Assembly (NCBI GenBank): GCA_964428315.1
Contig: CAYRXT010000004.1
Location: 4,382 to 68,381, forward strand
Direction: 5' to 3'
Length of the DNA: 64,000 bases
From: an uncultured Planctomycetales bacterium
GTDB lineage: Bacteria > Omnitrophota > Gorgyraeia > Zapsychrales > CAYRXT01
How positions within the stretch are numbered: position 1 is the first letter of the stretch; each line of letters begins with the position of its first letter. A program made the translations under genes and the position numbers. The notes beneath the pieces were generated by a model. That model saw only the letters and a list, made by a program, of their open reading frames with translations, did no database searches and was not told the origin of the DNA. This document shows positions 11,867 through 46,803 of the stretch, in pieces.

Positions 11867-11956
11867 ACAAAATAAAATAATTGGCGGTAAAATTTGACTA
11901 TTTATCAAATTCTTATTCTTTTTATCTCTAATGAGTTACGCGCTATGGCGAGGGGA

Positions 11957-13162: not shown

Positions 13163-13199
13163 ACGGGGCCCCTCGCTTCCTGAAATACATCGATCCGCG

Positions 13200-13901: not shown

Positions 13902-14028
13902 GTCCCCTTTGCCTTTTCGACAGATTTATGCCTCTCTAAGCTAATTATATACTGATTTTATCAAAACCCCAAAAAAATTGCGCAAATTTACTGTCTGTGA
14001 TAGGATAGACCTTCATTGAACACCCATC

Positions 14029-15129: not shown

Positions 15130-15167
15130 AGCGCCTTGTCTCGAAAGATTCCCGGTTTTTTGCTGTC

Positions 15168-15710
15168 TTGCGGAGGCCCGTCAGATATACTTGTATTGAA
15201 AGCCGTACGCCCATGGCCCTTCATCACACAACGTTCGTCTGTCCCAAATGCCAGGGAGACGACCTGGATCCGGTGCCCTATGTCTACCAAATCCTGAGGT
15301 CGGACGCCGCGGGCCGGCGCTTTTTCGCTGATCCAGAGAGCTTTTATCCCGGAGACAAAATGGACAAAAAGCACCGGGAACGCTTGTTACACCGGCTAAC
15401 GCCCCCGCCGGAACCCAAGAAATCCCTTCCGGCCGGAGCGATAGCTATCATGGCCTTCGTTCTCTCCTGGCTGATTACCGGCTCTCTCCTCATCGGCCGG
15501 ATAGGACAAACAGCTTATTTCGTTTCTTCCCTTATTGTCATCCTTTGCACGGCCTTCCCTTTTTACGCCACTCTGCGTTATGTCGACCGGGAATTCCGCA
15601 AATCGGTTGCCCGTTACAACCGTATTAAACCGCTGTGGAACAAACAGTACTTTTGCAACGGATGCCATCACGTCTTCATCCCAAAAAAAGGCGTCTCTTC
15701 CCTATATTAA
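15168..15710 (+). CDS. Membrane protein with N- and C-terminal zinc-ribbon-like CxxC pairs
   Basis: CPKC...CNGC flanking two predicted TM helices; start uncertain (alternative ATG at 15213). Confidence 0.45.
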   Translation: MRRPVRYTCIESRTPMALHHTTFVCPKCQGDDLDPVPYVYQILRSDAAGRRFFADPESFYPGDKMDKKHRERLLHRLTPPPEPKKSLPAGAIAIMAFVLSWLITGSLLIGRIGQTAYFVSSLIVILCTAFPFYATLRYVDREFRKSVARYNRIKPLWNKQYFCNGCHHVFIPKKGVSSLY

Positions 15711-15829
15711 ATCATGCGCGTCCAAATGAGGACCGGATTATCAACGGCGGATTGGAGGTTAGTCATGGAACCATGCCCTCCCCGCACGCTTTTAGCGGGG
15801 GAGACACCATTATTGAAATAGCAATGGTA

Positions 15830-16996
15830 TTAAAGGATGCGCACGCACAATTCATCCAGCACCAGGCGTCCTTTATCCGTAAGACAGACCCGGTCTCCCT
15901 GAGAGGAGAGAAAACCTTCCCTGATGAAATCCTTTACGGCCTCATGCTGGCGTTCCGTCAGCCCGTTTCCGAAACGTTCTTCTAGGCTGGGGATATCGAT
16001 CCCGGCGTTCATGCGCAGACCGAAGACAACGGCCTCGGTCAACCGTTCTCCGGCGCTCAACTGCTCCTCGCCCTCAACAGCCGTTCCTTTTTCCTTTATC
16101 CTCTGCAGATATGTCATGAGACGCGACGTGTTCCAAAAACGCCTCCCCTCGATATGGGAATGCGCCGCAAGGCCCAGTCCGATATAATGACCGCATGTCC
16201 AGTAGATGCGGTTGTGCCGGGACTCCTTACCCGGCATGCAAAAATTGCTGATCTCGTATTGAAGAAACCCTTCGGCCTTAAGTCTATCGCAAATCATTTG
16301 ATAATGCCGGGCCCGGTCATCCCCTTCCTTTAAGGCCAGACGGCGCGCATAAAAACGGCTTCCGCTTTCCACACTCAAATCATAAAGAGAGATATGATCA
16401 ACCGGCAGACGGATGAGCTGGCGGATGTCTTCTTCCGTGTCGCTCTGCCTCTGTCCGGGCAATCCGAACATAAGATCGCAGCTGATGTTTGGGCAGCCGG
16501 CCTCACGCAGGTCAGCAAGAACTCTCTTGGCATCGGATGAAGAATGATTCCTTCCAAGAAAGTTGAGATGTTCGTCATTGAACGTCTGAACCCCCACGCT
16601 GATCCGGTTAAATCCGATGTCCAGACAATGCGCGGCCTTCTCGGCGTCCAGCGATTCGGGATTAGCCTCTAGGGTCCACTCCGCATCATCGTCGACGCTG
16701 AACATTTCCCGGATGATTTCAACCAGCTCCGCGATCTCGGATCTGTCCAGAAGACTGGGCGTTCCGCCGCCGACATAAACGGATTTGACGCGCCTCCCCC
16801 GATAGGCTCCGGCCTCGCGCCGCAGGGCATTCACATAATCACCCCTCCGTTTTTTCTGTCCGACCGCAACGGCAAAAGAACAATAAAAACATTTCTTATT
16901 GCAAAACGGAATATGAATGTACAAGGCGAATGGATGCGATGAATGCGGCATGGACGTGTTAGACAAATTGGTTTCCCCAATCATTTTTCTAAACAT
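15830..16996 (-). CDS. hemW: Radical SAM heme chaperone HemW / HemN-like oxygen-independent coproporphyrinogen oxidase family
   Basis: LYIHIPFCNKKCFYCSF (CxxxCxxC + HemN signature), GGGTPSLL; start codon choice uncertain (16996, 16984 or 16951). Confidence 0.85.
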   Translation of the reverse strand: MFRKMIGETNLSNTSMPHSSHPFALYIHIPFCNKKCFYCSFAVAVGQKKRRGDYVNALRREAGAYRGRRVKSVYVGGGTPSLLDRSEIAELVEIIREMFSVDDDAEWTLEANPESLDAEKAAHCLDIGFNRISVGVQTFNDEHLNFLGRNHSSSDAKRVLADLREAGCPNISCDLMFGLPGQRQSDTEEDIRQLIRLPVDHISLYDLSVESGSRFYARRLALKEGDDRARHYQMICDRLKAEGFLQYEISNFCMPGKESRHNRIYWTCGHYIGLGLAAHSHIEGRRFWNTSRLMTYLQRIKEKGTAVEGEEQLSAGERLTEAVVFGLRMNAGIDIPSLEERFGNGLTERQHEAVKDFIREGFLSSQGDRVCLTDKGRLVLDELCVRIL

Positions 16997-17136
16997 TAGT
17001 ACAATTTATTTTTCATTTCATTATAAACGTTCTTTGATGTCGATCCCATAATTATTTTGTCGACGAGATATTTTGTTTTCCAGGCATTTTTCAAAAATTT
17101 TTACAATTGAATAGTCGAAAATAATTAAATTATTTT

Positions 17137-25622: not shown

Positions 25623-26195
25623 ATGCGTGGCGCCCTCTCTTCCATCTTCATTTGTCTTTCCGTCTTCCTGACAGGATGCGCCGGTGATGCCCCGGTCAAG
25701 GACATCACACTGGATTACCGCATCGTGGAAGAAGGTGCCTTTACGATGCGCTACCCCACGAACTGGAAGATCATCAGTGAAATCGGCGAATCGATAACCG
25801 GGATGGAGCGAACGTCGTTCCGGTTCTACCACCCCCGCAACCGCAACTGCTGGCTGAGCGTTGAGGTTATCCTGCTTTCGGAAGACGAAACAGAGTCCCG
25901 GGATCAGGTCGATCAGATCCTGGCCCACAAGACGCGCGAGGTTCGGGAAGACTTCGAACGGCGCGGCTTTTATAACTTCCGCGCCCAGACCTTCCAGGCC
26001 AGGCTTTCCGGACGGAACGCCAAAAAACTGAAACTATCCGCCGAATACGAAAATTTTACACGGGAAATCGGCGTTTACACCCTCAAGCATCGAAACCATT
26101 ATTACCTGATCAGCTATCAGTGGCAGGACAACTGGGATGAAGCGGCGAAAAACACCCTCTTACGCCGCCTCCATTCTTTCTCCGTCAGGGGTTGA
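25623..26195 (+). CDS. Hypothetical lipoprotein
   Basis: Signal peptide with lipobox (LTGC); no recognisable domain. Confidence 0.55.
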   Translation: MRGALSSIFICLSVFLTGCAGDAPVKDITLDYRIVEEGAFTMRYPTNWKIISEIGESITGMERTSFRFYHPRNRNCWLSVEVILLSEDETESRDQVDQILAHKTREVREDFERRGFYNFRAQTFQARLSGRNAKKLKLSAEYENFTREIGVYTLKHRNHYYLISYQWQDNWDEAAKNTLLRRLHSFSVRG

Positions 26196-26306: not shown

Positions 26307-29300
26307 TTAGTTTGAAAGCATTGAGAGGCTTTTTTTCTTCCTCTTGCCGTCGTCAAGTCCGAGAATAAAATTCACGTGGTTGGGGATGAGGTGGAACTGG
26401 AGGATATCGTATTCGAATCCGGGGAAGTTCTGTATCTCGGCGTCCGGGACGGGGATGTCTCCCCACCGGATATCGCCCTTGCCGTCGGAACGCAGCTTTA
26501 TTTCCGTCGTTGTCCAGTCGATACCGCCGGAATTCCCCCTGTCCGCCGGGGGCATTATCGGACTGCCGGATGAGACGGCAACGTGTTCTTGATCCTTTTC
26601 GGGGATCCCCTCCCTCGTTGCCTTTATATCAGCATTGTTTCTCCTTTCCCGCAGATTATAGACGCCCGGTGGTTCGCCAACAACGGATAGTACACCGTTA
26701 GAGGAGCCAGGTCCCGGGGCCTTTAAAGGTCGTGAAATTCCGCCGTGCCCGCTTGAGCCTGATATGCCATTGCTCCTATCCCTCCGGTTTGTTTTCCATT
26801 CCTGGAAAAAGGCATACACCTCCATCGTCAGGACTCCGAACAGCCCAAGGACGGGGAAGAAAAACGCACCCATGTAGAAGAGAGAGATGCCCCATTCCGG
26901 CATATCTCCGGAATAAATGTTACTTAAAAACTTGGCCCGCTTGAAATTGAACTTTTCAAAGAATCCTTTCATGCCGCGACAGGCCATTTTCGAAAACAAA
27001 CCGACCCCGGACGCTATGAGGCGCTGCAGTATGTTCAACCGGCCGTTATCTGCATTTCGCAGTATCTTGACCAACCGGTCATAATAAAAAAATTCGGCCG
27101 ACAGTTTCATTTTCGCGTTAAACGGCTCCAGAAAATGCTTTAGCAATAAATACAAAACACCGACGACCAGAAAAGACGACTGGCCGAAGACAATGGGGAT
27201 TTTCAGCAAGGGGACGAGGGCGACCGCCAGGGAATCGATCCCAACTGACGGCATACCCGTCCATAACGCCATGGCATTATAAAGTGAAAGCGCAAGCGTC
27301 AGACCGACAAGAACCGCGGATATCGATATGCTCCACATCCTCATATTGTTTAAGAAATGATACCCTCCGACGCCGCTGTAATTTGGCGGGAACATATATG
27401 TCATGAACAACTCTTTGGCCCTGCGTCTGAGGCGCCTGCGTTCCGAACTCAGATCTCTTTCCAACGCCGCCTCATCCAGGCTTTCCCCGAACAACGAGGC
27501 CTTCTTATTCTTCAATACCCTCAATTTCTGGATATATTTGTTTATGGCCTTGTATGTATTCAGTTGAAATTCATCGCTGTTGACCTTGATTCCCGAAAGC
27601 CGCCGGTTTAACTTCGCCCAGGGAAAACCCCATTTCATCCCAAATTTATCCGTATCCGGGTAATACCGGCTCTTATAGGAATCGACATTTGAAAAATTCC
27701 CTAAAGCTCCTTTGGCTTCGTTCAATGTCTCGACAAGCGTCAGCAGATATTCGAAACGCGCATGATAGTCATTCTCTTCAGATTTAATGGCCTCTCCTGC
27801 TTTTTCGTAAAGAAACCGACTGAGTTCGGAAGCCATCTTTCTCAATCTGGCGTAGTAGGTATCAAAATCCTTAAATTTCTCGAAGTCCAAAGGATAATTG
27901 TCCATGAAGACTTCAAGACCGGCTATTAAATCATCAAGCTCGGAGATCTGCGGGAGATCTTTTTCCATGAGGATCTTATATCCCCTGTTGAGGACCCCTT
28001 GGAAATCGTCCACTTTGACTGGAAGTTGCAGTTCCCGGTATCTTTTTTCCTGATTGCTATCCCGGAAACGGATTGTGGCCTTACCGTTTCCTTCAGCATC
28101 CCCCAGGGCGTCCTCAACCCTGATGCGGATCTTCGATTCCGGACTAATATCCAACGATATTTTTTCCGGGGGAATACTCCTGCCCCCGACCTTCAAGATT
28201 ACGTCCTCGGTTTCAAGCAGTCTGGCAATCCGCTCGCGAGTCTTTTTGCGAAAACGGTATGTCCCGATAAATCCTTCATTGACAAAGACGATTTCCAGCC
28301 CGCCGTTCATTCGCCGCACCTCCACGCCGGAATATTCTTCTCCTTTCAAAAGGAAAAGGGAAACCGGATTGAACCGGGATGTATTAATGCCCAGTTTTTC
28401 GTTCAAAGTCTTCAAGAATTCGTCTTCGGGTTTGCCTCCGTTCCGGCTGAAGAGGACAGGGTCTCCCTCGGTCCCGTCTCCTTCACTCACCTCCGCACTG
28501 TCTTTCCAGCGACGGTATTCCACGTTGATCTTCCTGTTGATCCACAGCGGCCCAATCAGAGCCCGGAAGGTCATAACCGTTAACAACTGACCGGCCGCTA
28601 GCAAAGCCGCCGGCGGCAATCCAAAAACAAAGAAGAGAAATGCTAACCCGGCGCCCATAGCCGCCATATTGTTAAAAAAGCGAAACAGGCGTTTGTGCTT
28701 GCTCGAAAGAGCGCGTCCGCTTAGATCCAAGGGGGGTTCCTCGATATATTTACGAAAAAGATAATACTCTTTCTCCAACCTGTCTCGTTTCAAAGCACGC
28801 ACAGGCCGCCGACGTCCAAGGATACGGGTCTCCAGGGTGTCTACACGTTCGCTCTGCCGGTAAAACCGGGGAAGAGACCGATGCTTCAAACGCCAGAAAT
28901 ATCTCTTCAACCAGAAATCCGATCCTGAAAGAAGGCGTTTCATTTTATCGATCGGAACGACCCAGCGATCCAGGAATTTCAGTGAAATCTTCAACTTGTC
29001 TTTCTCAGGTAAAAAGTCATGCCGGTAGCCGTATATGCTGGCAACAAGCGAGGCCAGGTGCCGCACCTCATTGCTGAGATCCTTTCTTTCCTTGAAATAA
29101 TGCAAATACTCATCCAGCTTAGCCAGGCACTCGTCACATTGCTGAAGGATCTCCGGTTTCCTGTACCCGGCGGCCGCCGCGCTCTCTCCCGTCAACGATG
29201 TCAGCTCTTCCCGCAAGCCTTTAAGACTTTCCTCATTTCCCCGTCTGTCGTTCTGCCCGGACGATAAGGCTTTCTTATAATTCTTCAGCACCGCCGTCTT

Positions 29301-32300
29301 CTCTTCTAAATGAATGATCGTGCGCCGGGCCAGGTCTCTCAGAATATAAGACTCATGGGCATTGGAGGAAAAGTTTTTGAGTTGAAAAGACATGCCGGGA
29401 TCATCTCGATAGGCGGCGGAGCGGCGCACGATATTTCTGAGTTCTGCCAGAGAGAGAACTTGTCCCCGAAGCCGTTCTTCCCAATAGTCCGATAATTCAT
29501 AAAAACGATTGCGCTTCAGTAAGATATCGAATTTCTGTCTTCCAGCATTTTCGGCCCGGAAAAAAAGATGCATGTATTCCGATCCGCCCATTTCTTTGAA
29601 ACCCTGAAATTTAAATATGATGTTGTTGGAATGGACCTCGAGGCCCCGGAACTGTAACGGAACCGACTTTCCGTTCTTGCGAACAATCCCGATGACGCCC
29701 TGTTCAAAGAGCTCCAGGATATGCCGTTCCATTTCTTTCAAATCGACAAATTTGTTTTTTCTCAAACCCGAATTGGTCAAAAGAATGAGCTTGATTTTAT
29801 TTCCGATGTAATTGGCCTTGATGCCAGTCAACCTGAATTGTTTTTGAACAAGGGGTTTGGAGGGCTGAACGTCGAATGTATTCTTCTTATCCTTCCTCAG
29901 ACTCCCGGATAACCGCCGGAGGAAGACCTCTTCTGCAGTAATGACCTTTTTGCGTGACCTCAGGTTTTTTGAAAGACTACCCGCCAGGCAAATGACCGAG
30001 ATAAACTCGATGATGGGAACGCCAAACTTTGACCACCATCTTCCGAGAGGCGTTTGGATTTTAGGGATATTGGCAATGGCCGGATTCTTGTTGTCTTCGC
30101 CGGTATTGTCTTTCCGCACAGCGGCGGCTCCTGTCTGTAAGTTCCCCGAATGTTCTGTGTTTTGATCTATCGCATCTATCCTTAAGACCCCGAATATCCG
30201 TTTTATCTTTTGCCAAATGCTTGTGACGGAAGAGCCTTCCTTCGTCCCCCCGTTTTCCAAGGCGGCTGTATCCGGGCTGTTCTTCTGATCTTTCAGTACC
30301 GGTAAGCTCTTATCGGACGGCTCTCCCTGCTCTTTTTTTGCTTCCCTGCCTTCCCCGGAAGGGGCCCTGTGCAGTTGGCCCTCTTCCCAAAGGACTTCCA
30401 CGGCGTCGGCAATCGCCGCATCGGAGGTGTCTTTACCGTCAAGGTTCTGATTGCCTCCCTTCCAGGGGATCGGACTGCTGACGATACGTCCGTCCGTAAG
30501 CCGGACATCACCCGTCACCGGGACCTTGTCGTGCAACTGCCGGGCCACGGCGAGGGCCTCGAAGGCAATCCTGGCGGGACGGTCCGGACGGCTCCAGTCC
30601 GTGCGCACCAGCACATCCACCGTATAATTTATATAGTCCTGATCGATGGGGCCGTCCCGGGCCGTCTCCTTCCCTATAAGGACAGCCAGGTAACGGTTCA
30701 GGGTTTTCCTGTCAAAGGGCAGGATCTTCTCTGGCCGGGGTGTTTCCGGTTGCCGGGGCTCATGTTCTTTCCCTGCGGGTTCTCCGGATTTTTCTTTCAC
30801 ATCTTTTCCCGCGGCAGCGTCAGCGGAAACGGTTTCAGCGCGGCGGGCATCTTCCCTCCCGGCGGCCTCATCAGAGACCTCTTTTTCACCGGGCACTTCT
30901 TCATCCACCGCGTCCACCGCCTTTCCCTGTGCTCTTTCGGCCGGATCGCCGGCGGCCAGTTCGACGGGCATCCATGGTTTCATCGCCTCCAGAAGCTGGC
31001 CGCGCTCGTCTTCATCGACCGGCATCCCGTCGATCTCCTCATGGTCCTGAAGGAAGGCGTACATGTCCGTGACGGGGACAAAGCCCGTATTCCCGATGAC
31101 AAAACCCCACTCCTCTTCATACCGGACCATGGGGCCCAGTCGTCCGCGGACGGCGGGATCCCGTTCCAAATGGACGTAATCCTCGGGCGGCCGGTTTTTC
31201 GCCATCTGCCCGTCCAGGTAATCCCTCATAATCTCTTCCAGCATGCCCTCCCCGGCAAGATAACGGGATCCCTGCGAGGCGAGGTACGCCTCCATCTTCC
31301 CCCGCACCTCTTCGAGCCTTCGGCGCTCTCTTTCCAGGTCCTCCATAAGTCTCAGGGTCCGGTCATGCTCGACGGACCGGAGCCGCTCAATCAATACCTC
31401 ATACGCCCTGATCCTTTCGTCAATATCGGCCATAACGCTTCCTTCAACGGTCCTGTGATGTTCATTCTGCCGGTCGGTCTGTTCGGCCAGCACCTTCTCC
31501 CTGGCCTTGTCCTGTTCCTCCCTGTCCCGGGCCTCCCCCATCGCGTCGTCGGGTGGATAACGGAATTCGGCGCGGACACCCGCCGTCTTGTCTTCCGCCA
31601 CGCGGATTCCCAGACGAAGGTTATCATTGACATCGTAATCCATCCCTCCGCTGATAGGTCTTCGGCCGGCGGGGTCATGCCCCTTGTTTTCCTGGTCCAA
31701 CAGATACGGCATACCCCCCTCCGTTATCCCCACCGGCATCTCGAAAACACCGCCCCATCGCCCGCGCCGGTATTCCGCGGCCATCCCGTGTCCCGGCCCT
31801 TCTCCCTGGAACGCGGCGATACGGTATCGCCATAACAGATTGCCCCCGAACAGGTCGGCTCCCACCGGAAAATCCAGGTAGGCGCCGGCCGCGTCCTGAT
31901 AGGGCACGTACACCACGCCCGCCGTCACCGGCACGGCGAATATCCCCCGTCCGCCGCTGCCCATCTGCGCGCTGAGATGCCACACGTTTCCGTCCAAGCG
32001 GTCCCAGTCATCGCCGCGCAGATTCAGGGAAAACCGGAAGGTGTGGCCGATGACCGGCGTCACCGCCCTCAGACTGAATCCGAAATCTTTCCGGGCATTG
32101 TCACCCAGCGCCGTATACCCAATCTCGCCGCCCTCGGAACTGTAACGGCCGACAAGCGAAAATCCCGCGGGGCCCACGTTAAGACCGCTTTCGGTATCCA
32201 CCGTCATCCGTCCCTGTCCGTCATGTCCGGTATAGGCGGCGTCGATACGGACATCCGGCCTGGCCGCGGGGCCTCCCCCGCCCCCCGGATCCAGTCCGCC

Positions 32301-35300
32301 GGCACCGGTCGGGATCTTCACCTTGGTATACATCTCGATCATGTTTTGGGAATCGTGCCCGATGGGTTCCGTGAAGTACCGTCCGCCCCATCCGAAATTC
32401 TCTATCCCGAAAGGATTCTTCAGCTCCACACCGTACTGCCATGCGTATTTCTCCGCCGACATGAACGGCACAATATTTTTGACAAGCGAGGGATCCTCAA
32501 ACTCACGCGTTACCCAGAATTTCCCGGACTTGGCCACATCTCCCATAGGGATGTTCTCTATGGCTCCCGTGTACCGGTTGTCGTTCAAGCGGTCCCCGCC
32601 GATATTGTTCCCGTCCAGCCTCTCCCAGGTAAAACCCACCGTTACCCCGTCCCTGATGAGTTCATACCCCACTTCGATGAGGCCGAAATACACGTTCCCG
32701 TATCCGTCCGTCACCGTCGGAAAATGCGGCCGCAGGATACTGAACTCAACGCTCGTCGACAATCCTCCCGAAAAGGGCGGCGACATGCCGAAATGGAAGC
32801 CCCGGGTTCCATAGCCCTGGTTGATATCCCGCACGACCCCGACGGAATGCGGCCAGGGAATCCAATTTAATGGGGCCTTCCATGTCAGTTGCGCCGAAAG
32901 CGCCCCTTTGTCCGGTTTCGCCTTGATGCCCACTTCGAGGGGCTTTCCCACGAGATCCCCGGCGTCGGCCGTGATTTTCGCCTCTGGGTATTTGTCCTTT
33001 CTCTCAACACCGCCGCCTCCGGCTATCGACCGGCCGCCCTCCGGGATCCAGTGTGACTTTTGTTTGACTTCAGCCTTCTTGATATTAATGTTTGCCATGT
33101 TGAACAAAGAGGGATCGCCTTGTCCCGCCGGCCGGACAACCTCCGCTTGACCGGATTCCGGGGAGGAAGGTTCCGCGATATCACCCTCGTTCCCCGCTGA
33201 TCCCCCGTTGTCTGTCCCGGGAACCGGCAACCCTTTCTTCGGAACGTTGTTTCCCGGCGGACTTCCGTTACCGTTACCGTCGCCGCTGCCGCCGTCCGAA
33301 CCATTACCGCCGCCGGGAACCGCGCCCAAACCGGATCCGGGGAATGAAAGCTCCGCGTCCCCGTCGCCCGGCATGATATCCAAAGGCACCGCCGCGTCCT
33401 GATCCCAGCGCTCCGTGAAATTACCGGTCTTCCACGCAATGTCGTCAAGCGCCTTGCGGAACCATCTCCAAGCGGTCTCATAACGTTCCGGGAACTTCGT
33501 GACCAGGATATTGCCCCCGCCGGGATAAGGGACATTGCTCACGAACTTCCCGTCCACAGGATAGTCGAAGGTCACCATGCCCCTGCCCGCATCCAGTTCG
33601 ACGGCGCCGAAAAGGGCCTCGGCGGCGATTCTCAAATCCTTTATCTCCTCCGTCGTCAACGCGGCGTCGGGATTTTGATAATAGGTTAGCAGGATCCTGG
33701 CCGTATTCCTGATATAGCCATCATTGATGTGTCCGAACTTTTTCAGAGGTTCCAGATACCGGACGATAGACGCCTCATCAAAAGACATATCCTTTTCTAT
33801 CCGGGGCCCGGTCTGCGCGGGAGGGTCGGCGAGAGGCGGATCAACCCTTTCGGGAGAGATTTTTGCCGTCTCTCCGCCGCTGACCTCGGTCTCCAAGGGG
33901 CCGGCCGGATCCCCGGAGCTTGTCGGGAGGATGTCTTCTTCTAAAGAGGTCCCCGTCATGTTTCCCGGTGACCCGGGCTCCAGATAATAATGCTCCGAGA
34001 GATGGACATTGGGCGGCGGGAGCACCGGGAAGAAACCGGCTGCTTGGTATCCATGAACAGCCGTCGGGATAACGTTCAGATGCGGTTCAAGCGGCGAATC
34101 GGAGGGATCCGGCGGCGCCTGTGGGAAAAGGGGCATTTGTGCCGATTCGATAGCGCCGAATATCGTCATCCCGATCATCAGAGCGGCCATATGCGGCAGG
34201 TATTCCCTGGCCTTGCCGCGCATGGAGACGAGGACATTGGGATTGAGCTCAAAACGCGAAGGCGTCAGGTGACGCCGTATAGCGGCATTCCGCATCTTAC
34301 GGCAGAAAACCTCCAGGTCATAAAACGTCACGTGCCTTTTTTCCTGAAGATGAAATTCCCGGTCTCGCAGGGTGAAATAATCCAGGAGTTTCTTCAGGTC
34401 GCTTTTTCTCCTGTCCGCGGAGGAAAAGGCGTGGTGGACCAGCCTCTCGGCCGCCTCGGTCCCAAACTCGTATTGCGCGGCCTCAAAAACCCATGCCTTC
34501 TTTATATTCTGGATGAGGCGGCGGATTTCCAGGACCGCCTCGTGCGCGTCCGTCCTGGGATCCACGAATATCTGCTGTTTGCCGTCGATCTGTTCGATCC
34601 GCACCATTTTGGATCGTTCGTTGTCCGCCACGTCATCGAAACGGGTGACCGTGACATCAAAGCGCCTGTTGAATATCATGTCGCAGGGCGAAGATATCTC
34701 CCGGATCTTCTCTTCAATGAGCTTCCACTCCTGAAAAAGGCCCCTGGCCAGTTCCTTGGCCTCCTGTCTCTGCCGGTCGCGAACGTCCTTTCTCCCGTGA
34801 TAATCGAAATGAAACCTGACGGGAAGGTAAGATGTCCGCAGAAGATAATCAGGCGCATAGGTCTCCAGCGCTCTGCCGATGAAACGGCCAGCCTTGTTCA
34901 GATATTTAATCTTGCGGCCGGACAAGACGACGGCATGCGAATCCGGGCCGTAAACGTACATGCCGCGGTCAACGGAAGTTTGGATGGTCTGCCTGGCCGC
35001 CAGCAGGGCGTCGGCATAGTCATCCTTCCCGTTGGCCAGTAATGCCGCCAGACGTTCGATCTCGCCCAGGGCCTGGCCGATCTGGTCCTCTTTCAATCCG
35101 GGCGTCGTCAGGATATCTGTTATCAGACGGTCCAGCCATCCCATCATCCGCCCGCCCAGGGCATTGATCTGGTCCTTGTTAACGGCCTCCGGCGCGAGGT
35201 CCGAATAAACCAGTTGGTCGATAGCCTCGCCCGTTATATTCCTGTGCGCCGCCTTCAGCCGCCCTCTGGAGCCTTTCAGCAGCCGGGAGATCAAGGGGGA

Positions 35301-36896
35301 CGGCCGCGCGTCCAAAGCCCCGTCGATCTTTTTCAATTGAATAGGGATCTTGTCCTCGAAGAATCCTTCCAGTACGGCCTGAAGGCTGAATAACCTTGCC
35401 ATGGGAAAAAGGATTTGGAGGAGGGCGGAATATCCCAGCACGCCGAAAGGACGCGCGCGGCCCTCCGGTTTGTTCCCGCTCTTCAAGGCATCAGGATCCG
35501 GTGTGGGACCGGCCGGCGTTGAAGGCATGGAAGGTACGGCATCCGGTTCCTCACCCGCGGTTTCGCGCCCAGAGGCCTTACCCAAGGAGGGCTTCGCAGG
35601 TAACGGGCCCATGGCCGTCTTGAGTTTTATGCTCAGTCGGTGAAGCTTCCCGCGGATATGATTCAGCATCTCCCGCCCGACGACGGGGCTTATGCCGGCC
35701 ACCTTGCGGGTCTTGACCCACCTTCGCAGGTTGCCCCATGACATGCCTCCGGAAAAATACCGGCGGTGCACGAAATCTTTTTTGAAGGGGTCATAATCGG
35801 TGCGGATGATGTCATGGGTTCCCTCTTTATAGGCGTCGATATAACGCTCATAGATTTTTTGTTTGGTCTCCCGGTCGTCAAGGTCGACGCCCCGGATCTT
35901 GTTCCTGTCGGCGTAAATGCGGTTCACGACGTTGCGCCTGAGATTAAGCTTGAACCAGGCCGCCAAGATCAGGGAATGGTAAAGCTGACGCAGACCGGTG
36001 AACTGGCGGCCCTCGTTGATCTCCTTCTCGATCTCCGGCAGGATAATCTCCGAGAATATCCTGCTTGACATATTGTGGACCTCGGTCACCTTCTCGGTCT
36101 CCAGGATGTCGGTACCGAGATTTTTGTTCCTGAGATTATTCTTGAGGGCCAGGTAATCCCCTTCCATCATCACCTTGAGCCGGCTCCTGGTCACGAATGC
36201 CTTGTTGCCGATCTCGTAAACAACAGCCTCATCGGGAAGGATCCAGACCTTATTGAACGTGTTGATCGGGAAATCCGTGGTTCCGTAAACGGCGTGCACC
36301 TTCTCATAAATCCGTTCCCAGAACCTGCGGCCGGAGGGTTCCTCGGGGTTGGTCAGCACCGAAGAGAGCTGCTTGAGGAGATAATCCTGGATAAGCAGAT
36401 CTTTTCCCGCGTCCGTGGCGCCGAGATAGTCCGGTATTATGCGGTCCGACTCGTACGGGGAAAGGTTCACCCAAAGGTCTTCTTCGGGCACGGTCAGGAA
36501 GGCCAGAAAATATTTCACTAGCCGCGAGGCCTCTTCTTCGTCGAGAGAGGCCTTGTCACCGGAATCGATGATGAAATCGATCTTAAAAGGGTCCTGGGGG
36601 TCGACCTGAATTCCCCTTAATATCGGCGGGGAAAATACCGTCGAGGACGGCATCACCGCGGAGGGGGCGGGCAGGACAAGCGGCGCCTGCGCCCGCGCGT
36701 AACGCAGTCGCGCGACGTCCAGGGCGATGATGTTTTCGCAAAAGAAGAGCAAAACGGCAAGGGAGAGAACGCGGAATGTCCTGGAGTCGCGACGGAAAGC
36801 GAAAAATCCCGGCCGTCCAGGCGGATATCTTGTCCGGTTCAAACCCGGCCTTCCGTTTCCGTTTTGCTGCGCCCTGTGTCTGGTCGTTCGGGTCAT
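26307..36896 (-). CDS. Giant 3,529-aa envelope-associated protein of unknown function
   Basis: Uninterrupted 10,590-nt ORF. N-terminal Arg-rich segment plus hydrophobic signal/anchor (VLSLAVLLFFCENIIAL...ARAQA). Gly/Asn/Asp low-complexity linker, a ~500-aa Gly/aromatic-rich beta-type segment, an acidic coiled coil, and a Lys-rich C-terminal third with several hydrophobic helices. No P-loop, protease, glycosidase, RTX or cadherin motifs seen. Confidence 0.85.
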   Translation of the reverse strand: MTRTTRHRAQQNGNGRPGLNRTRYPPGRPGFFAFRRDSRTFRVLSLAVLLFFCENIIALDVARLRYARAQAPLVLPAPSAVMPSSTVFSPPILRGIQVDPQDPFKIDFIIDSGDKASLDEEEASRLVKYFLAFLTVPEEDLWVNLSPYESDRIIPDYLGATDAGKDLLIQDYLLKQLSSVLTNPEEPSGRRFWERIYEKVHAVYGTTDFPINTFNKVWILPDEAVVYEIGNKAFVTRSRLKVMMEGDYLALKNNLRNKNLGTDILETEKVTEVHNMSSRIFSEIILPEIEKEINEGRQFTGLRQLYHSLILAAWFKLNLRRNVVNRIYADRNKIRGVDLDDRETKQKIYERYIDAYKEGTHDIIRTDYDPFKKDFVHRRYFSGGMSWGNLRRWVKTRKVAGISPVVGREMLNHIRGKLHRLSIKLKTAMGPLPAKPSLGKASGRETAGEEPDAVPSMPSTPAGPTPDPDALKSGNKPEGRARPFGVLGYSALLQILFPMARLFSLQAVLEGFFEDKIPIQLKKIDGALDARPSPLISRLLKGSRGRLKAAHRNITGEAIDQLVYSDLAPEAVNKDQINALGGRMMGWLDRLITDILTTPGLKEDQIGQALGEIERLAALLANGKDDYADALLAARQTIQTSVDRGMYVYGPDSHAVVLSGRKIKYLNKAGRFIGRALETYAPDYLLRTSYLPVRFHFDYHGRKDVRDRQRQEAKELARGLFQEWKLIEEKIREISSPCDMIFNRRFDVTVTRFDDVADNERSKMVRIEQIDGKQQIFVDPRTDAHEAVLEIRRLIQNIKKAWVFEAAQYEFGTEAAERLVHHAFSSADRRKSDLKKLLDYFTLRDREFHLQEKRHVTFYDLEVFCRKMRNAAIRRHLTPSRFELNPNVLVSMRGKAREYLPHMAALMIGMTIFGAIESAQMPLFPQAPPDPSDSPLEPHLNVIPTAVHGYQAAGFFPVLPPPNVHLSEHYYLEPGSPGNMTGTSLEEDILPTSSGDPAGPLETEVSGGETAKISPERVDPPLADPPAQTGPRIEKDMSFDEASIVRYLEPLKKFGHINDGYIRNTARILLTYYQNPDAALTTEEIKDLRIAAEALFGAVELDAGRGMVTFDYPVDGKFVSNVPYPGGGNILVTKFPERYETAWRWFRKALDDIAWKTGNFTERWDQDAAVPLDIMPGDGDAELSFPGSGLGAVPGGGNGSDGGSGDGNGNGSPPGNNVPKKGLPVPGTDNGGSAGNEGDIAEPSSPESGQAEVVRPAGQGDPSLFNMANINIKKAEVKQKSHWIPEGGRSIAGGGGVERKDKYPEAKITADAGDLVGKPLEVGIKAKPDKGALSAQLTWKAPLNWIPWPHSVGVVRDINQGYGTRGFHFGMSPPFSGGLSTSVEFSILRPHFPTVTDGYGNVYFGLIEVGYELIRDGVTVGFTWERLDGNNIGGDRLNDNRYTGAIENIPMGDVAKSGKFWVTREFEDPSLVKNIVPFMSAEKYAWQYGVELKNPFGIENFGWGGRYFTEPIGHDSQNMIEMYTKVKIPTGAGGLDPGGGGGPAARPDVRIDAAYTGHDGQGRMTVDTESGLNVGPAGFSLVGRYSSEGGEIGYTALGDNARKDFGFSLRAVTPVIGHTFRFSLNLRGDDWDRLDGNVWHLSAQMGSGGRGIFAVPVTAGVVYVPYQDAAGAYLDFPVGADLFGGNLLWRYRIAAFQGEGPGHGMAAEYRRGRWGGVFEMPVGITEGGMPYLLDQENKGHDPAGRRPISGGMDYDVNDNLRLGIRVAEDKTAGVRAEFRYPPDDAMGEARDREEQDKAREKVLAEQTDRQNEHHRTVEGSVMADIDERIRAYEVLIERLRSVEHDRTLRLMEDLERERRRLEEVRGKMEAYLASQGSRYLAGEGMLEEIMRDYLDGQMAKNRPPEDYVHLERDPAVRGRLGPMVRYEEEWGFVIGNTGFVPVTDMYAFLQDHEEIDGMPVDEDERGQLLEAMKPWMPVELAAGDPAERAQGKAVDAVDEEVPGEKEVSDEAAGREDARRAETVSADAAAGKDVKEKSGEPAGKEHEPRQPETPRPEKILPFDRKTLNRYLAVLIGKETARDGPIDQDYINYTVDVLVRTDWSRPDRPARIAFEALAVARQLHDKVPVTGDVRLTDGRIVSSPIPWKGGNQNLDGKDTSDAAIADAVEVLWEEGQLHRAPSGEGREAKKEQGEPSDKSLPVLKDQKNSPDTAALENGGTKEGSSVTSIWQKIKRIFGVLRIDAIDQNTEHSGNLQTGAAAVRKDNTGEDNKNPAIANIPKIQTPLGRWWSKFGVPIIEFISVICLAGSLSKNLRSRKKVITAEEVFLRRLSGSLRKDKKNTFDVQPSKPLVQKQFRLTGIKANYIGNKIKLILLTNSGLRKNKFVDLKEMERHILELFEQGVIGIVRKNGKSVPLQFRGLEVHSNNIIFKFQGFKEMGGSEYMHLFFRAENAGRQKFDILLKRNRFYELSDYWEERLRGQVLSLAELRNIVRRSAAYRDDPGMSFQLKNFSSNAHESYILRDLARRTIIHLEEKTAVLKNYKKALSSGQNDRRGNEESLKGLREELTSLTGESAAAAGYRKPEILQQCDECLAKLDEYLHYFKERKDLSNEVRHLASLVASIYGYRHDFLPEKDKLKISLKFLDRWVVPIDKMKRLLSGSDFWLKRYFWRLKHRSLPRFYRQSERVDTLETRILGRRRPVRALKRDRLEKEYYLFRKYIEEPPLDLSGRALSSKHKRLFRFFNNMAAMGAGLAFLFFVFGLPPAALLAAGQLLTVMTFRALIGPLWINRKINVEYRRWKDSAEVSEGDGTEGDPVLFSRNGGKPEDEFLKTLNEKLGINTSRFNPVSLFLLKGEEYSGVEVRRMNGGLEIVFVNEGFIGTYRFRKKTRERIARLLETEDVILKVGGRSIPPEKISLDISPESKIRIRVEDALGDAEGNGKATIRFRDSNQEKRYRELQLPVKVDDFQGVLNRGYKILMEKDLPQISELDDLIAGLEVFMDNYPLDFEKFKDFDTYYARLRKMASELSRFLYEKAGEAIKSEENDYHARFEYLLTLVETLNEAKGALGNFSNVDSYKSRYYPDTDKFGMKWGFPWAKLNRRLSGIKVNSDEFQLNTYKAINKYIQKLRVLKNKKASLFGESLDEAALERDLSSERRRLRRRAKELFMTYMFPPNYSGVGGYHFLNNMRMWSISISAVLVGLTLALSLYNAMALWTGMPSVGIDSLAVALVPLLKIPIVFGQSSFLVVGVLYLLLKHFLEPFNAKMKLSAEFFYYDRLVKILRNADNGRLNILQRLIASGVGLFSKMACRGMKGFFEKFNFKRAKFLSNIYSGDMPEWGISLFYMGAFFFPVLGLFGVLTMEVYAFFQEWKTNRRDRSNGISGSSGHGGISRPLKAPGPGSSNGVLSVVGEPPGVYNLRERRNNADIKATREGIPEKDQEHVAVSSGSPIMPPADRGNSGGIDWTTTEIKLRSDGKGDIRWGDIPVPDAEIQNFPGFEYDILQFHLIPNHVNFILGLDDGKRKKKSLSMLSN

Positions 36897-40006: not shown

Positions 40007-40549
40007 CTATCCGGATTGTCTCGTGCCGCTCAGGAGTCTCTCCCGCCGGACGACCGCGACGATCATAAGCGCCAGCGCCCCGCTGATGGCGTTCACCACG
40101 ACGTCCCGGACGTCGTAATAACGGCTGGGCAGAAGATACTGGATCCCTTCGTCCCCCCAGCCGATGAGGGCCGTGACCACGAACGCCAGGGCATAGAGGC
40201 GCCAGCCGCCCGTCGAAAACTGCATGGCCCGGTAAAAAAGATACGCCATGACCCCGTACTGGATAAAATGGATCTTCTCTTCCGGGATCTTTAAAGCGAA
40301 GAGGCCGTAGGCGTAGACCGCGCCGATCATCGCCATAAAAAGGTACGAACTCACGAGCCGCAGTCGAAATTTCTTGATCAAAATAAGAATCAGCAGCGCG
40401 AAAACAAGGACAAGTGTCGTATTGACCACGGGGGCAAACGGCAGCCGGGCGCGCAAAAAAGAACAGACGGGACGCACGACCGAGAGCGTCGAATAGATAA
40501 GCGCGACCCACCCGAAGGCATACAGCCACCGTTTTTTCTGTTCAGTCAT
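40007..40549 (-). CDS. VanZ-like family membrane protein
   Basis: 180 aa, 4-5 TM helices, VanZ-like topology; weak. Confidence 0.5.
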   Translation of the reverse strand: MTEQKKRWLYAFGWVALIYSTLSVVRPVCSFLRARLPFAPVVNTTLVLVFALLILILIKKFRLRLVSSYLFMAMIGAVYAYGLFALKIPEEKIHFIQYGVMAYLFYRAMQFSTGGWRLYALAFVVTALIGWGDEGIQYLLPSRYYDVRDVVVNAISGALALMIVAVVRRERLLSGTRQSG

Positions 40550-41417
40550 CGTCGGTCCTGACGGTTTGCCCGTCGCTCACAAAGGTTATCGTGCCGTCCC
40601 GGTCCGTGCGCAGAAGACGCCCCTTGAGCTGTTCCAGCTGCGCCTCTTTCGGCATCCCGAAGGCGTTCTCCCCGGTGGACACGACGAAGATCTTGCCTTC
40701 CATCTCTTTGACAAAGAGAGGGCTCACCGCCCCGCCGTGGTGCGGGACCTGGACGACCTGCGCCTCTTTGACCCGAGGAAACAGCCGGAGGATGTCATCC
40801 TGCTGCGGGGGCAGGATGTCGGCGGTTAACAGGAATCCCGTCTCCCGGTACGTGATCCAAAGCACGAGCGAATTCTCATTGGCCGATCCGTTCAGCTCAT
40901 CGGGGTGCAGCGCCTTTATCGTCACGCCGGCAGGTCCATTAAGGATGACGTCGCCCCGTCTCACCGTCTCGAAGGGAACGCCCCTCCCGCGGATCTCACG
41001 CACAAGCTCCCCGTAACCCGGCTCGGCCCGCCGATCGTCCCCGTTGAGATAAAAGGCCTCCACCGGCAGGCGTTCAAGAACGGCCGGGAATCCACCGAAG
41101 TGGTTCTCGTGGGGATGGGTGGCGATGCAGGCATGCAGCCGTTCGATGCCCCGTCGGGCGAGATAGTCCCTTAACGCCGGCGCCGTCCCGGCCGACCCCG
41201 CGTCGACCAGGATGTTCTTGCCGCCGGGGGTCTCGACCAGGATACTGTCTCCGTATCCCGCGTCGATGAAATGCACGCGCAATCCTTCCCGAGGAACCCC
41301 CGAAAAGACCGCGGACGTCAAGACAATGAGCATCGCGAGGGTGCAACAAAATTGAAATGTCTTCATTCCCTGTCTTCGCATGATGATGAAGGCCTTCGGG
41401 AAAGTATTGTAATTCAC
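40542..41417 (-). CDS. Secreted MBL-fold metallo-hydrolase (ComEC C-terminal-domain-like)
   Basis: Signal peptide; HACIATHPHENH metal-binding motif; beta-lactamase fold pattern. Confidence 0.75.
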   Translation of the reverse strand: MNYNTFPKAFIIMRRQGMKTFQFCCTLAMLIVLTSAVFSGVPREGLRVHFIDAGYGDSILVETPGGKNILVDAGSAGTAPALRDYLARRGIERLHACIATHPHENHFGGFPAVLERLPVEAFYLNGDDRRAEPGYGELVREIRGRGVPFETVRRGDVILNGPAGVTIKALHPDELNGSANENSLVLWITYRETGFLLTADILPPQQDDILRLFPRVKEAQVVQVPHHGGAVSPLFVKEMEGKIFVVSTGENAFGMPKEAQLEQLKGRLLRTDRDGTITFVSDGQTVRTDDD

Positions 41418-41482
41418 GCGGGGATACTTTGCAAATGTTTAGGCCGGGTTCGAGGATCCGCGCCGGCACGGGGGAATCCTCT

Positions 41483-41911
41483 TTATGCCTCTTGACGAGC
41501 CAGCCACCCGGCGACGGCCTGCTTAATCTGGTCTTTGATGCGGCGGGTTCCGGCCATGATCTCTTCCCGGGACCCCGTCAGGGCCGAGGGATCCGGGAAG
41601 CTCCAGTGGATCCTCTTGTTGACGCCCGGGAAGACCGGACAGCGTTCGGCGGCGGACTCGTCGCACACCGTGATGACATACTTGAACATCCTCCCCGCCT
41701 TGAACAGGCCGAACACGCTCTTCGTCTCTTTGCCGGTTATGTCGACGCCCTCTTCTTTCAGGACGTCGACGACGGCCGGGTTGAGCGTCCCGGGTTCTAA
41801 TCCCGCACTCTCAACCTCAAAACGGTCGCCCGCCAGTTTGCGCAGGAGCTCCTCGGCCATCTGGCTTCGCGCGGAGTTGTGGACGCACACAAACAAGACT
41901 TTTTCTTTCAC
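41483..41911 (-). CDS. arsC: Arsenate reductase, thioredoxin-coupled LMW-PTP type
   Basis: [13 protein letters not shown]-loop (CX5R) plus downstream VCDE...CP cysteines, collinear with B. subtilis ArsC. Confidence 0.85.
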
Positions 41912-41920
41912 GGAATCCCC

Positions 41921-42880
41921 CTAGGTTAAGAGAATCTGACACCAGTTGAAGAGATACCCGGTAAAGACGATGCCCGCCGTCGTGACCCCGAAAAAGAGCA
42001 CGATCAGTTTCAGGCGCATGGCCCGACGCAGCATCACCGCCTCGGGCAGGCTGAGGGCCGCGGTGGCCATCATAAAGGCCAGCGCCGTCCCCAGGGGGAT
42101 CCCCTTGTTGAACAGGACAACCGCCACCGGAACGATCGCCGCGCAGCTGCCGTACATCGGCACGCCGAGGGCCGTCGCGACGGGCACGGACATGACCCCG
42201 GTCCGGTCGATGATCCCCTGAACGGCCTCCTGGGGGACGTAGTTGTGAATGAGCGAACCGACGCCGACGCCCACCAGGACCCAAACCCAGACCTTCCTCA
42301 CGATGGAGGACGCCTCGCCTAGACCGAAGGCCAGCCTTCTCCTGAAACCGCGGTTTTTGTCTTCCTCAACCGACCGCGCCTGCCGGGTGACCAGGTCCCG
42401 GACAAGATGACGGTCCAGGCGCATGCGGCCCAGTACCCACCCGGCGAGGATCCCGATCAGGATTCCGCTGAGCACATAAATAACGGTGATCTTCCAGCCG
42501 AAAAACCCCAGCATCAGGACGACCAGGTACTCGTTGATCAACGGCGAGGTGATGAGAAACGAAAACGTCACGCCCAGCGGGACGCCAGCTTCCAGAAAAC
42601 CCAGAAAGATCGGGATGGACGAACAGGAACAAAACGGCGTCAGCGCCCCGAACAGGGACGCCGCGCCGTGCCCCGCGAGCCCCTTTTTCCCCAGCCAGTA
42701 TTTCACCTTGTCCTGCGGGAGAAACGTCCTCAGGAAACCGATGGCCAGGATCATAACATAGAGGAGGACCAAAATCTTGACCGTGTCATAGATAAAAAAA
42801 TGGAGCGCCCCGGTCCAGCGGGCGGCGGGATCCAGTCCGAGGATGCCGTAAACCAGGCGGTCTACCGCTAACTGCAGCAT
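41921..42880 (-). CDS. arsP: Organoarsenical efflux permease ArsP
   Basis: 8-TM permease with the diagnostic [10 protein letters not shown] motif; sits between arsR and arsC. Confidence 0.8.
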
Positions 42881-42994
42881 GAACCGTCACCCTTTTGGGA
42901 ATCACCGCCGCAGCACGAACCCCGAGATGTCCGCGCCTTCTCTTCCAGGGCCCTGTCGAGTCTCCTCATCCATCCGGTGAAGAACTTTTTGATT

Positions 42995-43393
42995 TTACTT
43001 TCTTTTTTCGAACCGTTTTCCTGAACCATGTCGACCTCCCTTTTTCTTTTCCGGTTTACAACAAATCACATCCCGGTTAATGCGTCCGGCCCGCCTCCGG
43101 TCCCGGACGATCACCTGGTCGTCGTTAAGCCGCGTCTTGATAAAGGCAAGCAGTCGGGCCGAACATCCGTCAACCGGACGGGAAAGGGCGTAATTCGTCC
43201 AGAAACTGTCCTGCTCTTCGGCGATGAGACCGACGGCCTTCATCTTCTTCAAATGACGGGAGACGCTGGGCTGGGCGATCCCGATGATGCCGGCCAGTTC
43301 GCAGACACACATCTTCCTTTTTTCCAGGAGCTTGACGATCCGGATCCGGTTTTTGTCTCCCAGGATTTTGAAGAGGGCCTCGAGTTCTTGCAC
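42995..43393 (-). CDS. arsR: ArsR/SmtB-family metalloregulator
   Basis: Winged-HTH with CVCELA metal-binding site. Confidence 0.85.
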   Translation of the reverse strand: MQELEALFKILGDKNRIRIVKLLEKRKMCVCELAGIIGIAQPSVSRHLKKMKAVGLIAEEQDSFWTNYALSRPVDGCSARLLAFIKTRLNDDQVIVRDRRRAGRINRDVICCKPEKKKGGRHGSGKRFEKRK

Positions 43394-43513
43394 GGGTACC
43401 GCCTTATTTATTTAGCCGTTTCGCTATATAGTTTACATGGATCGCAAAGGTTGTCAAGCGCCTTGTTATCAAGCGCCTTTCTTTTTTGCCGCCTTCCTTT
43501 TATAATAGGGGTG

Positions 43514-44008
43514 ATGAAGACGCTGCTGCTATTAAGACACGCCAAATCGAGCCGGGATGATCCCGCGCTGAAGGATCATGACCGCCCGCTGAACCCGCGC
43601 GGCGAGCGCGACGCCCCGCGCGTGGGACGGCTCATTAGAAAGGAAAACATCGTGCCGGAACGCGTGGTCAGCTCAACGGCCCTGCGGGCCAGGCAGACCG
43701 CCGAGGCCGTGGTCAGGGCCTGCGGCTGTGGAGGAGAGACGGTCTATTCCCAAAAGATCTATCTCGGCGGGCCCGAGGATTATCTCGCGGCCCTGAAAGA
43801 ACTCCCGGATTCGTGTTCCCGCGCGATGATCGTCGGACACAATCCAGACTCGGAATCCCTCCTGGAGCGGTGGACGGGACGATATCACAAACTGCCCACC
43901 GCGGCGCTGGTCCACCTTGAACTGCCGGTCGCCCGCTGGCGGGACCTGAACCTGTCCACAAACGCCCGCGTCCTGAACCTCTGGCGTCCGAAAGAATTAT
44001 CGCCCTAA
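43514..44008 (+). CDS. Histidine phosphatase superfamily protein, SixA-like
   Basis: MKTLLLLRHAKS (RHG-type catalytic motif), ~165 aa. The tracked 326-aa ORF 43028-44008 has a spurious N-terminal 160 codons antisense to arsR. Confidence 0.75.
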   Translation: MKTLLLLRHAKSSRDDPALKDHDRPLNPRGERDAPRVGRLIRKENIVPERVVSSTALRARQTAEAVVRACGCGGETVYSQKIYLGGPEDYLAALKELPDSCSRAMIVGHNPDSESLLERWTGRYHKLPTAALVHLELPVARWRDLNLSTNARVLNLWRPKELSP

Positions 44009-44025
44009 CCTCTTCTTTGTCCGGC

Positions 44026-45750: not shown

Positions 45751-46803
<1,053 letters not shown>

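Follow-up and report, generated by a model that had tools for sequence, protein, structure and literature searches.

A shift in codon composition inside the gene for a giant predicted membrane protein of Omnitrophota

How does a single bacterial gene come to be written in two different nucleotide compositions? The question is raised by a stretch of 64,000 nucleotides (hereafter the window) of contig CAYRXT010000004.1, from the assembly GCA_964428315.1 of an uncultured bacterium of the phylum Omnitrophota, in which one giant open reading frame (ORF) on the reverse strand passes abruptly from GC-rich to A/T-richer DNA on its way to the 3′ end. A preliminary description of this DNA took the break for a fusion of two modules of different evolutionary origin, such as the capture of a low-GC membrane module. 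The analysis reported here demonstrated that the break is real and far beyond chance, and that it is the seam of a mosaic gene, in which the A/T-richer side encodes a membrane module. The reading preferred here, to which a probability of roughly 0.45 is given, is that recombination with a lower-GC lineage exchanged the tract encoding the module, which has been partly ameliorated since.

The drop is visible in 500-nt windows, whose GC content is 0.57-0.65 between 30.3 and 35.7 kb but 0.42-0.52 between 26.5 and 30.2 kb. By maximum likelihood, the change-point in the GC content of third codon positions (GC3) was located at codon 2184 (window position 30344), with GC3 falling from 0.705 to 0.586 and a log-likelihood ratio (LLR) of 26.1, compared with a highest LLR of 8.6 among the 200 shuffles that served as the null. 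An independent change-point in first codon positions (GC1), from 0.625 to 0.51 with an LLR of 22.4, was found at codon 2193 (position 30317), the two separate estimates agreeing within 10 codons. The joint GC1 and GC3 change-point lies at codon 2183 (position 30347; LLR 47.7), and its 2-unit support interval covers codons 2166-2230 (positions 30206-30398). The impression, first gained by eye, that the DNA from 26.3 to about 30.25 kb is more A/T-rich than the rest of the ORF was thus confirmed by the drop in GC and by the steps in GC3 and GC1. The shift also affects four-fold sites alone, which decrease from 0.76 to 0.67 across the break, and the synonymous codon usage of the N-terminal part and of the C-terminal tract differs significantly (chi2 = 117.6, 41 degrees of freedom, p = 2.5e-9). 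A uniform GC3 and codon usage had been named beforehand as the outcome that would speak against a seam; once computed, both GC3 and relative synonymous codon usage (RSCU) proved non-uniform across the ORF. As to its position, the break had been thought to coincide with a hydrophobic helix, but this helix (FGVPIIEFISVICLAGSL, amino acids (aa) 2291-2308, window positions 29970-30026) begins about 108 codons downstream of the change-point, which is located in the linker between the middle region of the protein and the membrane module. The last folded-looking domain ahead of the break, the second copy of an internal repeat (aa 2053-2152), has a GC3 of 0.67-0.83 in 30-codon windows. The junction DNA contains no repeats and no promoter-like or terminator-like excess. 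At the other end of the tract, GC3 climbs back to 0.72 in the C-terminal tail, with a change-point at codon 3447 (LLR 4.0); this recovery is only suggestive.

Part of the drop belongs to the protein and part to the DNA. The middle region has a GC content of 0.593 and a GC3 of 0.70, and the module has a GC content of 0.485; 63% of the GC difference between them sits at codon positions 1 and 2 and 37% at position 3. The share of positions 1 and 2 reflects how unusual the middle is in its amino acids, and the remaining share of position 3 is a genuine synonymous shift that extends at an even level through the whole module. The synonymous component was expressed as a GC3 residual, that is, the observed value minus the value expected from window-wide codon preferences for each amino acid. 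The expected GC3 is near-identical for all parts of the gene (0.653-0.672), and the residuals are +0.064 for the conserved N-terminal domain (N-domain; GC3 = 0.73), +0.016 for the middle, -0.096 for the C-terminal tract (z = -7.4) and +0.064 for the tail. Amino-acid composition accounts for only about 0.013 of the 0.125 difference in GC3. The sharp module boundary that had been proposed is real, and the step at the seam includes a synonymous shift beyond what amino-acid composition accounts for. GC3 is flat at 0.56-0.58 through the linker, soluble domain A, the transmembrane (TM) hairpin and soluble domain B, and reaches 0.64 in the codons of the C-terminal TM cluster, so that TM codons are not the low point of the tract. 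The leucine codons TTR make up 0.38 of all leucine codons in the tract versus 0.19 in the background. The RSCU of the tract correlates with that of the window at r = 0.80, under the minimum of 0.85 for native chunks of the same size, and its GC3 of 0.578 is likewise under their minimum of 0.607. Compared with low-GC relatives of the protein, the RSCU correlation is 0.39 for the tract and about 0 for the N-terminal part. Two-fold codons end in G or C more often in the N-terminal part than in the window background, to which the tract is close. The amino-acid outlier of the protein is the middle (aa 441-2183), with a Gly/Ala/Arg/Asp/Pro share of 0.42, and the module resembles its own N-domain and its relatives. 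The C-terminal part had been described as rich in lysine, with several TM helices, and it does contain 8.1% Lys (4.5% in the middle) and seven hydrophobic TM-like segments by hydropathy; what did not survive is the contrast with everything upstream, as the first 450 codons have 7.3% Lys and the K/N/I/F/Y share is 0.28 in N-domain and C-terminal module alike. In the same way, the Gly/Ala/Arg/Asp/Pro richness ascribed to the N-terminal two thirds applies to aa ~450-2183 and not to the first 450 residues.

The GC3 step is specific to this gene and is not a property of the module or of the membrane proteins of the genome, because five full-length relatives that carry the same module are compositionally uniform, nine other genes of the family lack a comparable step, and a neighbouring permease is not low in GC3. 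The N-domain residual exceeds that of the module by 0.158 here (z = 5.5) and by 0.004 to 0.048 in the five relatives, and the best GC3 change-point in the nine family genes has an LLR of at most 9.0 versus 26.1. The permease, a protein with 12 TM helices, has a residual of +0.009, which indicates that membrane genes of the host genome are not low in GC3 as such; the residual of a flanking gene is +0.026, and genes downstream of the module are back at host-typical composition. Among the 42 residuals obtained from a host sample of 64 kb, that of the C-terminal tract ranks second lowest. Codon tuning for co-translational insertion was considered and rejected, given the higher GC3 of the TM codons relative to the soluble domains and the unremarkable permease. 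A separate observation concerns P0124 (locus L006, 537-6065), the one family gene besides the giant gene whose GC3 change-point is significant (LLR 9.0), where the first 228 codons have a GC3 of 0.478 and the rest 0.332, the step lying inside the N-domain.

The giant ORF encodes a membrane-anchored protein of a large, uncurated and Omnitrophota-specific family framed by two conserved ends. An identical 3,511-aa product is called on an NCBI contig of 87 kb and on a Logan contig of 50 kb, that is, in two assembly sources. The giant protein matched no Pfam family at E <= 1, and comparisons with NCBIfam, PADLOC and the PDB sequences were equally negative. Among 5.8 billion clusters, 577 matches at E <= 1e-3 were found, many of them named Candidatus Omnitrophota, and the 119 non-self matches listed (1,943-6,139 aa) align only to aa ~50-400, with 45-55% identity. 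This region is the N-domain, in which 46 columns of the family alignment (A2) are invariant and the motifs WVNLSPxE, LKQ and SGG stand out. The giant protein has the N-terminal layout of the family, a TM anchor (aa 43-61) followed by the conserved domain of ~370 aa, and an N-terminal TM segment is likewise present in most members. The AlphaFold2 (AF2) model of the N-domain has a predicted local distance difference test score (pLDDT) of 68 and a predicted template modelling score of 0.70, and its comparison with the PDB gave no fold match (best E 0.55). At the opposite end, the last ~130 aa of 95 of 125 family proteins hold a tail characterised by the motif GG[IV]D and by a hydrophobic segment of the F/L-x-P-V-I type, for which a consensus 'GGID(L/F)NP...PVIxxIxP..LPxxLG' can be written. 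The giant protein has this motif as well, its tail reading GGIDW...FPGFEYDILQFHLIP; tail-to-tail BLAST matches are weak (E 0.013-5). Between the two ends, family members hold a UbiB kinase with an M48 peptidase, response regulators, methyltransferases, PGK, malate synthase/ICL or HEAT repeats, and PEP synthase is also found among the enzymes. The family thus consists of a conserved frame (TM anchor, ~370-aa N-domain and ~80-aa tail) around highly variable cargo, a frame that looks like a targeting or display scaffold. It is widespread and uncharacterised: at least 577 members can be detected, neither Pfam nor NCBIfam was found to have a model for it, and it seems more interesting than the GC break itself. 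Two members of 4,924 and 4,941 aa stand in tandem at locus L014 (1-9160 and 10001-24826) with a PilZ gene between them, which recalls the PilZ genes reported beside giant Omnitrophota genes.

The relatives of the module speak against a simple capture. It comprises 1,260 aa (aa 2184-3446) arranged as a TM segment, domain A, a TM hairpin, domain B and four TM helices. When the alignment columns of domains A and B were compared with hhalign, they matched over 341 columns with a probability of 99.9% (E = 5e-35); the domains share the motifs DFR, YFxxLA and KSxYLPD, and each is preceded by one or more TM segments. This similarity shows that the module is an ancient tandem duplication of a unit made of TM segment and beta-sandwich/helical-bundle domain, followed by a four-TM cluster. 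In the AF2 model of the module (mean pLDDT 57.6; 70-90 over most of domain A) both domains are built as a beta-sandwich plus helical bundle, and the comparison of this model with the PDB returned only generic Ig-like matches (E >= 0.017). An exhaustive phmmer search with aa 2230-3420 against 1.84 billion representatives found six other proteins only. Five of them are full-length, unnamed hypothetical proteins of 1,755-1,964 aa (P0002, P0121, P0122, P0124 and P0125), with E-values from 2.4e-27 to 1.5e-09 for the four closest and of 4.7e-04 for P0125. All five carry N-domain, module and tail in one ORF, and the module aligns with them end to end (alignment A1) at 19-21% identity, including TM1 and the (N)LRxR-type basic motif in 5/5. 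The giant protein shows the module layout of the P0002 subfamily: TM1 with the basic motif, domain A, hairpin, domain B and TM cluster. The sixth match, P0123, comes from a low-coverage contig of 4 kb; the DNA upstream of it encodes, in a different frame, the preceding part of this protein, which marks P0123 as a frameshifted fragment. No standalone module was found by phmmer among the 1.84 billion representatives. Separate searches for free-standing homologues had been suggested at the outset, with a shared contiguous architecture as the result that would count against capture; it is this architecture that was found, and the idea of a separately captured low-GC membrane module gained no support. 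The contig flanks of the five relatives have 36-46.5% GC. Further searches for the module in genome contigs and metagenome contigs gave no relatives, and none of the 80 loci (<= 56% identity) obtained in a locus search based on the permease was syntenic with a giant gene. This permease, closest to that of Omnitrophota MAGs, is of the cation-chloride type, its closest homologues in GTDB species representatives (L015-L041) are at most 56% identical, and the first 12 loci, mostly labelled Omnitrophota, have 37-52% GC, which places the source lineage, with no close sequenced relative, at the GC-rich end of those sampled. Several genes recur around the relatives: P0124 is followed at a distance of 2 kb by a gene for exosortase EpsH (L006 8227-9117), OmpR-type response regulators are found downstream of P0124 (L006 6426-7121) and P0125 (L009 11736-12434), and MamF_MmsF, acylphosphatase and LigA downstream of P0121 and P0122 (L003 10543-10896, L004 10795-11163). 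The duplicated membrane module is rare and uncharacterised.

The other side of the seam behaves differently. The middle, 1,740 aa long, contains low-complexity linkers rich in Pro and Gly, together with a coiled coil and a stretch rich in beta structure. A word-indexed search with aa 450-3440 found no homologue but the protein itself, with a limited sensitivity given that the same search missed the relative P0002, and no BLAST match to the middle was obtained among 124 family proteins. In its place, the five relatives have a linker of 230-330 aa with one or two PG_binding_1-like repeats, which are conserved in all five (30-55% identity) and for which BLAST, hidden Markov model and hhalign comparisons gave no match anywhere in the giant protein. 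The middle has a repeat of its own, with aa 1031-1131 and aa 2053-2152 being 35% identical (BLASTP, E = 4e-8). Between these copies are a Gly-rich stretch, the beta-rich region of ~470 aa and the coiled coil, and the second copy ends just ahead of the compositional break. By dinucleotide signature, the middle is the strongest outlier of the window (delta* 84-86, window mean 43, SD 13). In these comparisons, the GC-rich middle comes out as the lineage-specific piece and the membrane module as a regular partner of the frame. By the positive-inside rule, the N-domain and the middle, the latter probably, are predicted to be extracytoplasmic and domains A and B cytoplasmic. From this anatomy only, the protein may be an envelope-spanning scaffold or signalling protein, in which seven TM segments would couple the outer part to two cytoplasmic domains. 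The positions of all these parts are collected in Table 1.

Table 1. Parts of the giant gene, in window coordinates.
Feature	Position	Strand	Basis or remark
Single giant ORF, 3,529 codons plus stop	26307..36896	(-)	ORF list and translation
Arg-rich N-terminus (aa 1-42), then N-terminal TM anchor (aa 43-61)	36714..36896	(-)	Hydropathy peak 2.16
Family-defining conserved N-domain (aa 62-440)	35577..36713	(-)	Homologue alignments
Middle region (aa 441-2183), putatively lineage-specific	30348..35576	(-)	No homologue found; composition
Internal repeat copy 1, ~100-aa domain (aa 1031-1131)	33504..33806	(-)	BLASTP
Internal repeat copy 2 (aa 2053-2152)	30441..30740	(-)	BLASTP
Compositional change-point, support interval codons 2166-2230	30206..30398	(-)	Best codon 2183 (window 30347)
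Polar linker (aa 2184-2290), GC3 already low (0.56)	30027..30347	(-)	
TM1 (aa 2291-2309), then basic motif KNLRSRKK	29970..30026	(-)	Hydropathy
Soluble domain A (aa 2310-2748), predicted beta-sandwich then long helical bundle	28653..29969	(-)	Alignment A1, AF2
TM hairpin (aa 2749-2781)	28554..28652	(-)	Hydropathy; position kept in relatives
Soluble domain B (aa 2782-3184), ancient duplicate of domain A	27345..28553	(-)	hhalign
C-terminal cluster, about 4 TM helices (aa 3185-3360)	26817..27344	(-)	Hydropathy; aligned in relatives
Gly/Ser/Pro-rich linker (aa 3361-3446), GC3 0.51	26559..26816	(-)	
Family-wide C-terminal tail (aa 3447-3529; GGIDW...FPGFEYDILQF...)	26310..26558	(-)	GG[IV]D motif, weak BLAST

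The window is compositionally patchy, at 9500-17000 and at 40500-46900. One of these tracts holds lower-GC housekeeping genes (purB, a GGDEF response regulator, polyprenyl synthase and HemN) with a GC content of 0.49-0.51 and GC3 residuals of -0.04 to -0.07; there is also a tract of GC3-high genes with residuals of +0.08 to +0.125. The total GC content of the C-terminal tract, ~0.49, is not exceptional in this setting, the housekeeping tract at 10-18 kb having 0.49-0.51. No gene of the window comes near the low GC3 (0.464, residual -0.21) of a STAND/AAA_16 NTPase gene at 47050-48246 on the reverse strand, which had no PADLOC match and is the clearest candidate for foreign DNA in the window.

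According to the reading preferred here, the module tract would derive from an Omnitrophota lineage of lower GC: recombination with that lineage's allele of this family gene would have introduced the tract or replaced an older one, and no free-standing gene would have been fused. The N-domain, the middle and probably the tail would then have resided in this genome of ~55% GC for longer than the module tract, whose codon usage would have been partly ameliorated since the exchange. Because no donor, orthologue or syntenic locus was found, it is composition alone that points to recombination. Several observations weigh against this reading. The tract is only about 1.5 gene-level standard deviations (SD) under the mean GC3 residual of the window, whose genes range from -0.21 to +0.125 with an SD of 0.062. 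Its dinucleotide signature is ordinary (delta* 54) and its tetranucleotide profile resembles that of the native housekeeping tract at 9.5-15 kb (correlation 0.756, and 0.70-0.75 for the tract from purB to HemN), so neither signature would single it out as alien DNA. The return of the tail to high GC3 is not significant (permutation p = 0.17). The N-domain identities are star-like (42-52%) and thus uninformative about discordance between N-domain and module. No donor or close orthologue was present in the collections searched, where the nearest module relative is 19-21% identical. Finally, the left junction lies in non-conserved sequence, where a homologous crossover is not explained.

It is possible, though doubtful, that the tract has no foreign history at all. 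Its composition would then come from heterogeneity within the genome or from synonymous selection specific to the region, such as tuning of translation or insertion or the local mutational environment, and the steepness seen by eye would be due mostly to the juxtaposed GC-rich, low-complexity middle. The wide spread of the window residuals would fit this account, with housekeeping genes at 10-17 kb on the low side, as would the ordinary oligonucleotide signatures of the tract, the predominance of codon positions 1 and 2 in the GC difference from the middle, and the five relatives, in which the N-domain residual likewise exceeds that of the module, though by little. Against it, the offset of the giant gene is at least three times that of any relative, the nine family genes show no comparable change-point, TM codons are not below those of the soluble domains, the adjoining permease and flanking genes are not low, expression-linked codon selection cannot vary within one ORF, and amino-acid composition covers only a tenth or so of the GC3 difference. 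The polarity might also be the reverse, although this is improbable: module, N-domain and tail would be resident, and the orphan middle would have been inserted or expanded in place of the PG_binding-like linker, after which the ends would have been homogenised against paralogues, possibly by GC-biased gene conversion. The replacement of the short repeat linker of the relatives by unrelated residues, the dinucleotide signature and internal repeat of the homologue-free middle, and the GC-ending two-fold codons of the N-terminal part, above background while those of the tract are near it, are what would be expected. A resident tract should be at synonymous equilibrium, however, and this one is below all native chunks of the same size in both GC3 and RSCU; the overall residual of the middle is host-typical, and the window holds no paralogue as a conversion partner.

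The fusion of two independent genes, one for a GC-rich exported protein and the other for a horizontally acquired, free-standing membrane protein of low GC, is distinctly improbable. A real step in GC3 and codon usage at the linker, and a module whose only relatives are in low-GC genomes, agree with such an event, but no free-standing homologue exists among the representatives searched, the one short match is the frameshifted P0123, the module stands between N-domain and tail in 5/5 full-length relatives, and the giant protein itself keeps the family tail after the module. Hardly credible is an assembly chimera, a misjoin within the gene between contigs from two populations that differ in GC. 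The DNA does come from a metagenome assembly and the family has many paralogues with conserved ends, conditions under which misjoining could arise; against this, the same product was recovered from NCBI and Logan, the frame is open for 10.6 kb across the junction, the junction falls in unique, non-conserved sequence that has no repeats, the layout of N-domain, module and tail is exactly that of the five relatives, and the genes past the module return to host-typical composition.

A broader and unlikely extension of the exchange reading is that the frame serves as a cassette-display system of Omnitrophota, within which whole cargo blocks, from metabolic enzymes to an entire seven-TM module, would be swapped between lineages, the GC3 plateau being the footprint of a fairly recent swap. 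By analogy, such a system might be functionally comparable to the exchange of polymorphic-toxin tips, applied to envelope machinery. If the import of the tract is true, the gene would provide a dated and localisable case of the way in which Omnitrophota build their very long, sequence-unique envelope proteins, namely by block exchange inside a conserved frame and not by slow drift. As it stands, the break is a modest compositional curiosity, with no functional read-out, in a class of genes already known to be mosaic.

Comparison with known systems places the gene in this class. The giant proteins of Omnitrophota have been described in two preprints (West-Roberts et al., 2023, bioRxiv 10.1101/2023.11.21.568195; Nielsen & Lui, 2026, bioRxiv 10.64898/2026.06.07.730766), according to which 94% of the proteins of at least 10 thousand amino acids (kaa) bear a signal peptide or TM segments and 80% remain singletons at 30% identity. 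The portions read make no mention of the N-domain/GGID-tail frame, and term searches of the preprint of Nielsen & Lui (10.64898/2026.06.07.730766) brought up neither intragenic breaks in GC nor breaks in codon usage. The sharp drop in G+C within one long ORF, where a conserved, GC-rich part gives way to an exchangeable, AT-richer one, resembles that of Rhs genes, in which a GC-rich core is joined to an AT-rich extension, although the resemblance is one of pattern only. The GC-rich core of Rhs genes is believed to derive from a high-GC organism (PMC7259588), and polymorphic toxins are described as exchanging C-terminal toxin cassettes by recombination; the family of the giant gene also has conserved ends and variable cargo. 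Unlike Rhs proteins, the giant protein has no YD/Rhs repeats (PF05593, PF03527) and no toxin or immunity domain according to Pfam and PADLOC, its low-GC part is a 1,260-aa polytopic module conserved in five relatives and followed by the tail instead of a short variable tip, its step is modest (GC 0.59 to 0.49), and no immunity-like gene follows, the next ORF (25623-26195) being on the opposite strand and having no match. The closest likeness is to the P0002 subfamily, which shares the N-terminal TM segment, an N-domain at 45-49% identity, and a module and GGID tail that can be aligned end to end, whereas its members are low-GC and uniform and have the short PG_binding_1-like linker in place of the 1,740-aa middle. 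With the long proteins of the phylum, the giant protein has in common that it is TM-anchored, domain-shuffled and largely sequence-unique; those giants measure 10-30 kaa or more and contain SecA_DEAD, C39 peptidase, dockerin or multi-enzyme domains, whereas the protein studied here has 3,529 aa and no Pfam domain, and by length and by these domains it belongs neither to the archaeovorin nor to the dockerin type. In conclusion, the gene is best filed among the known mosaic long envelope proteins of Omnitrophota.

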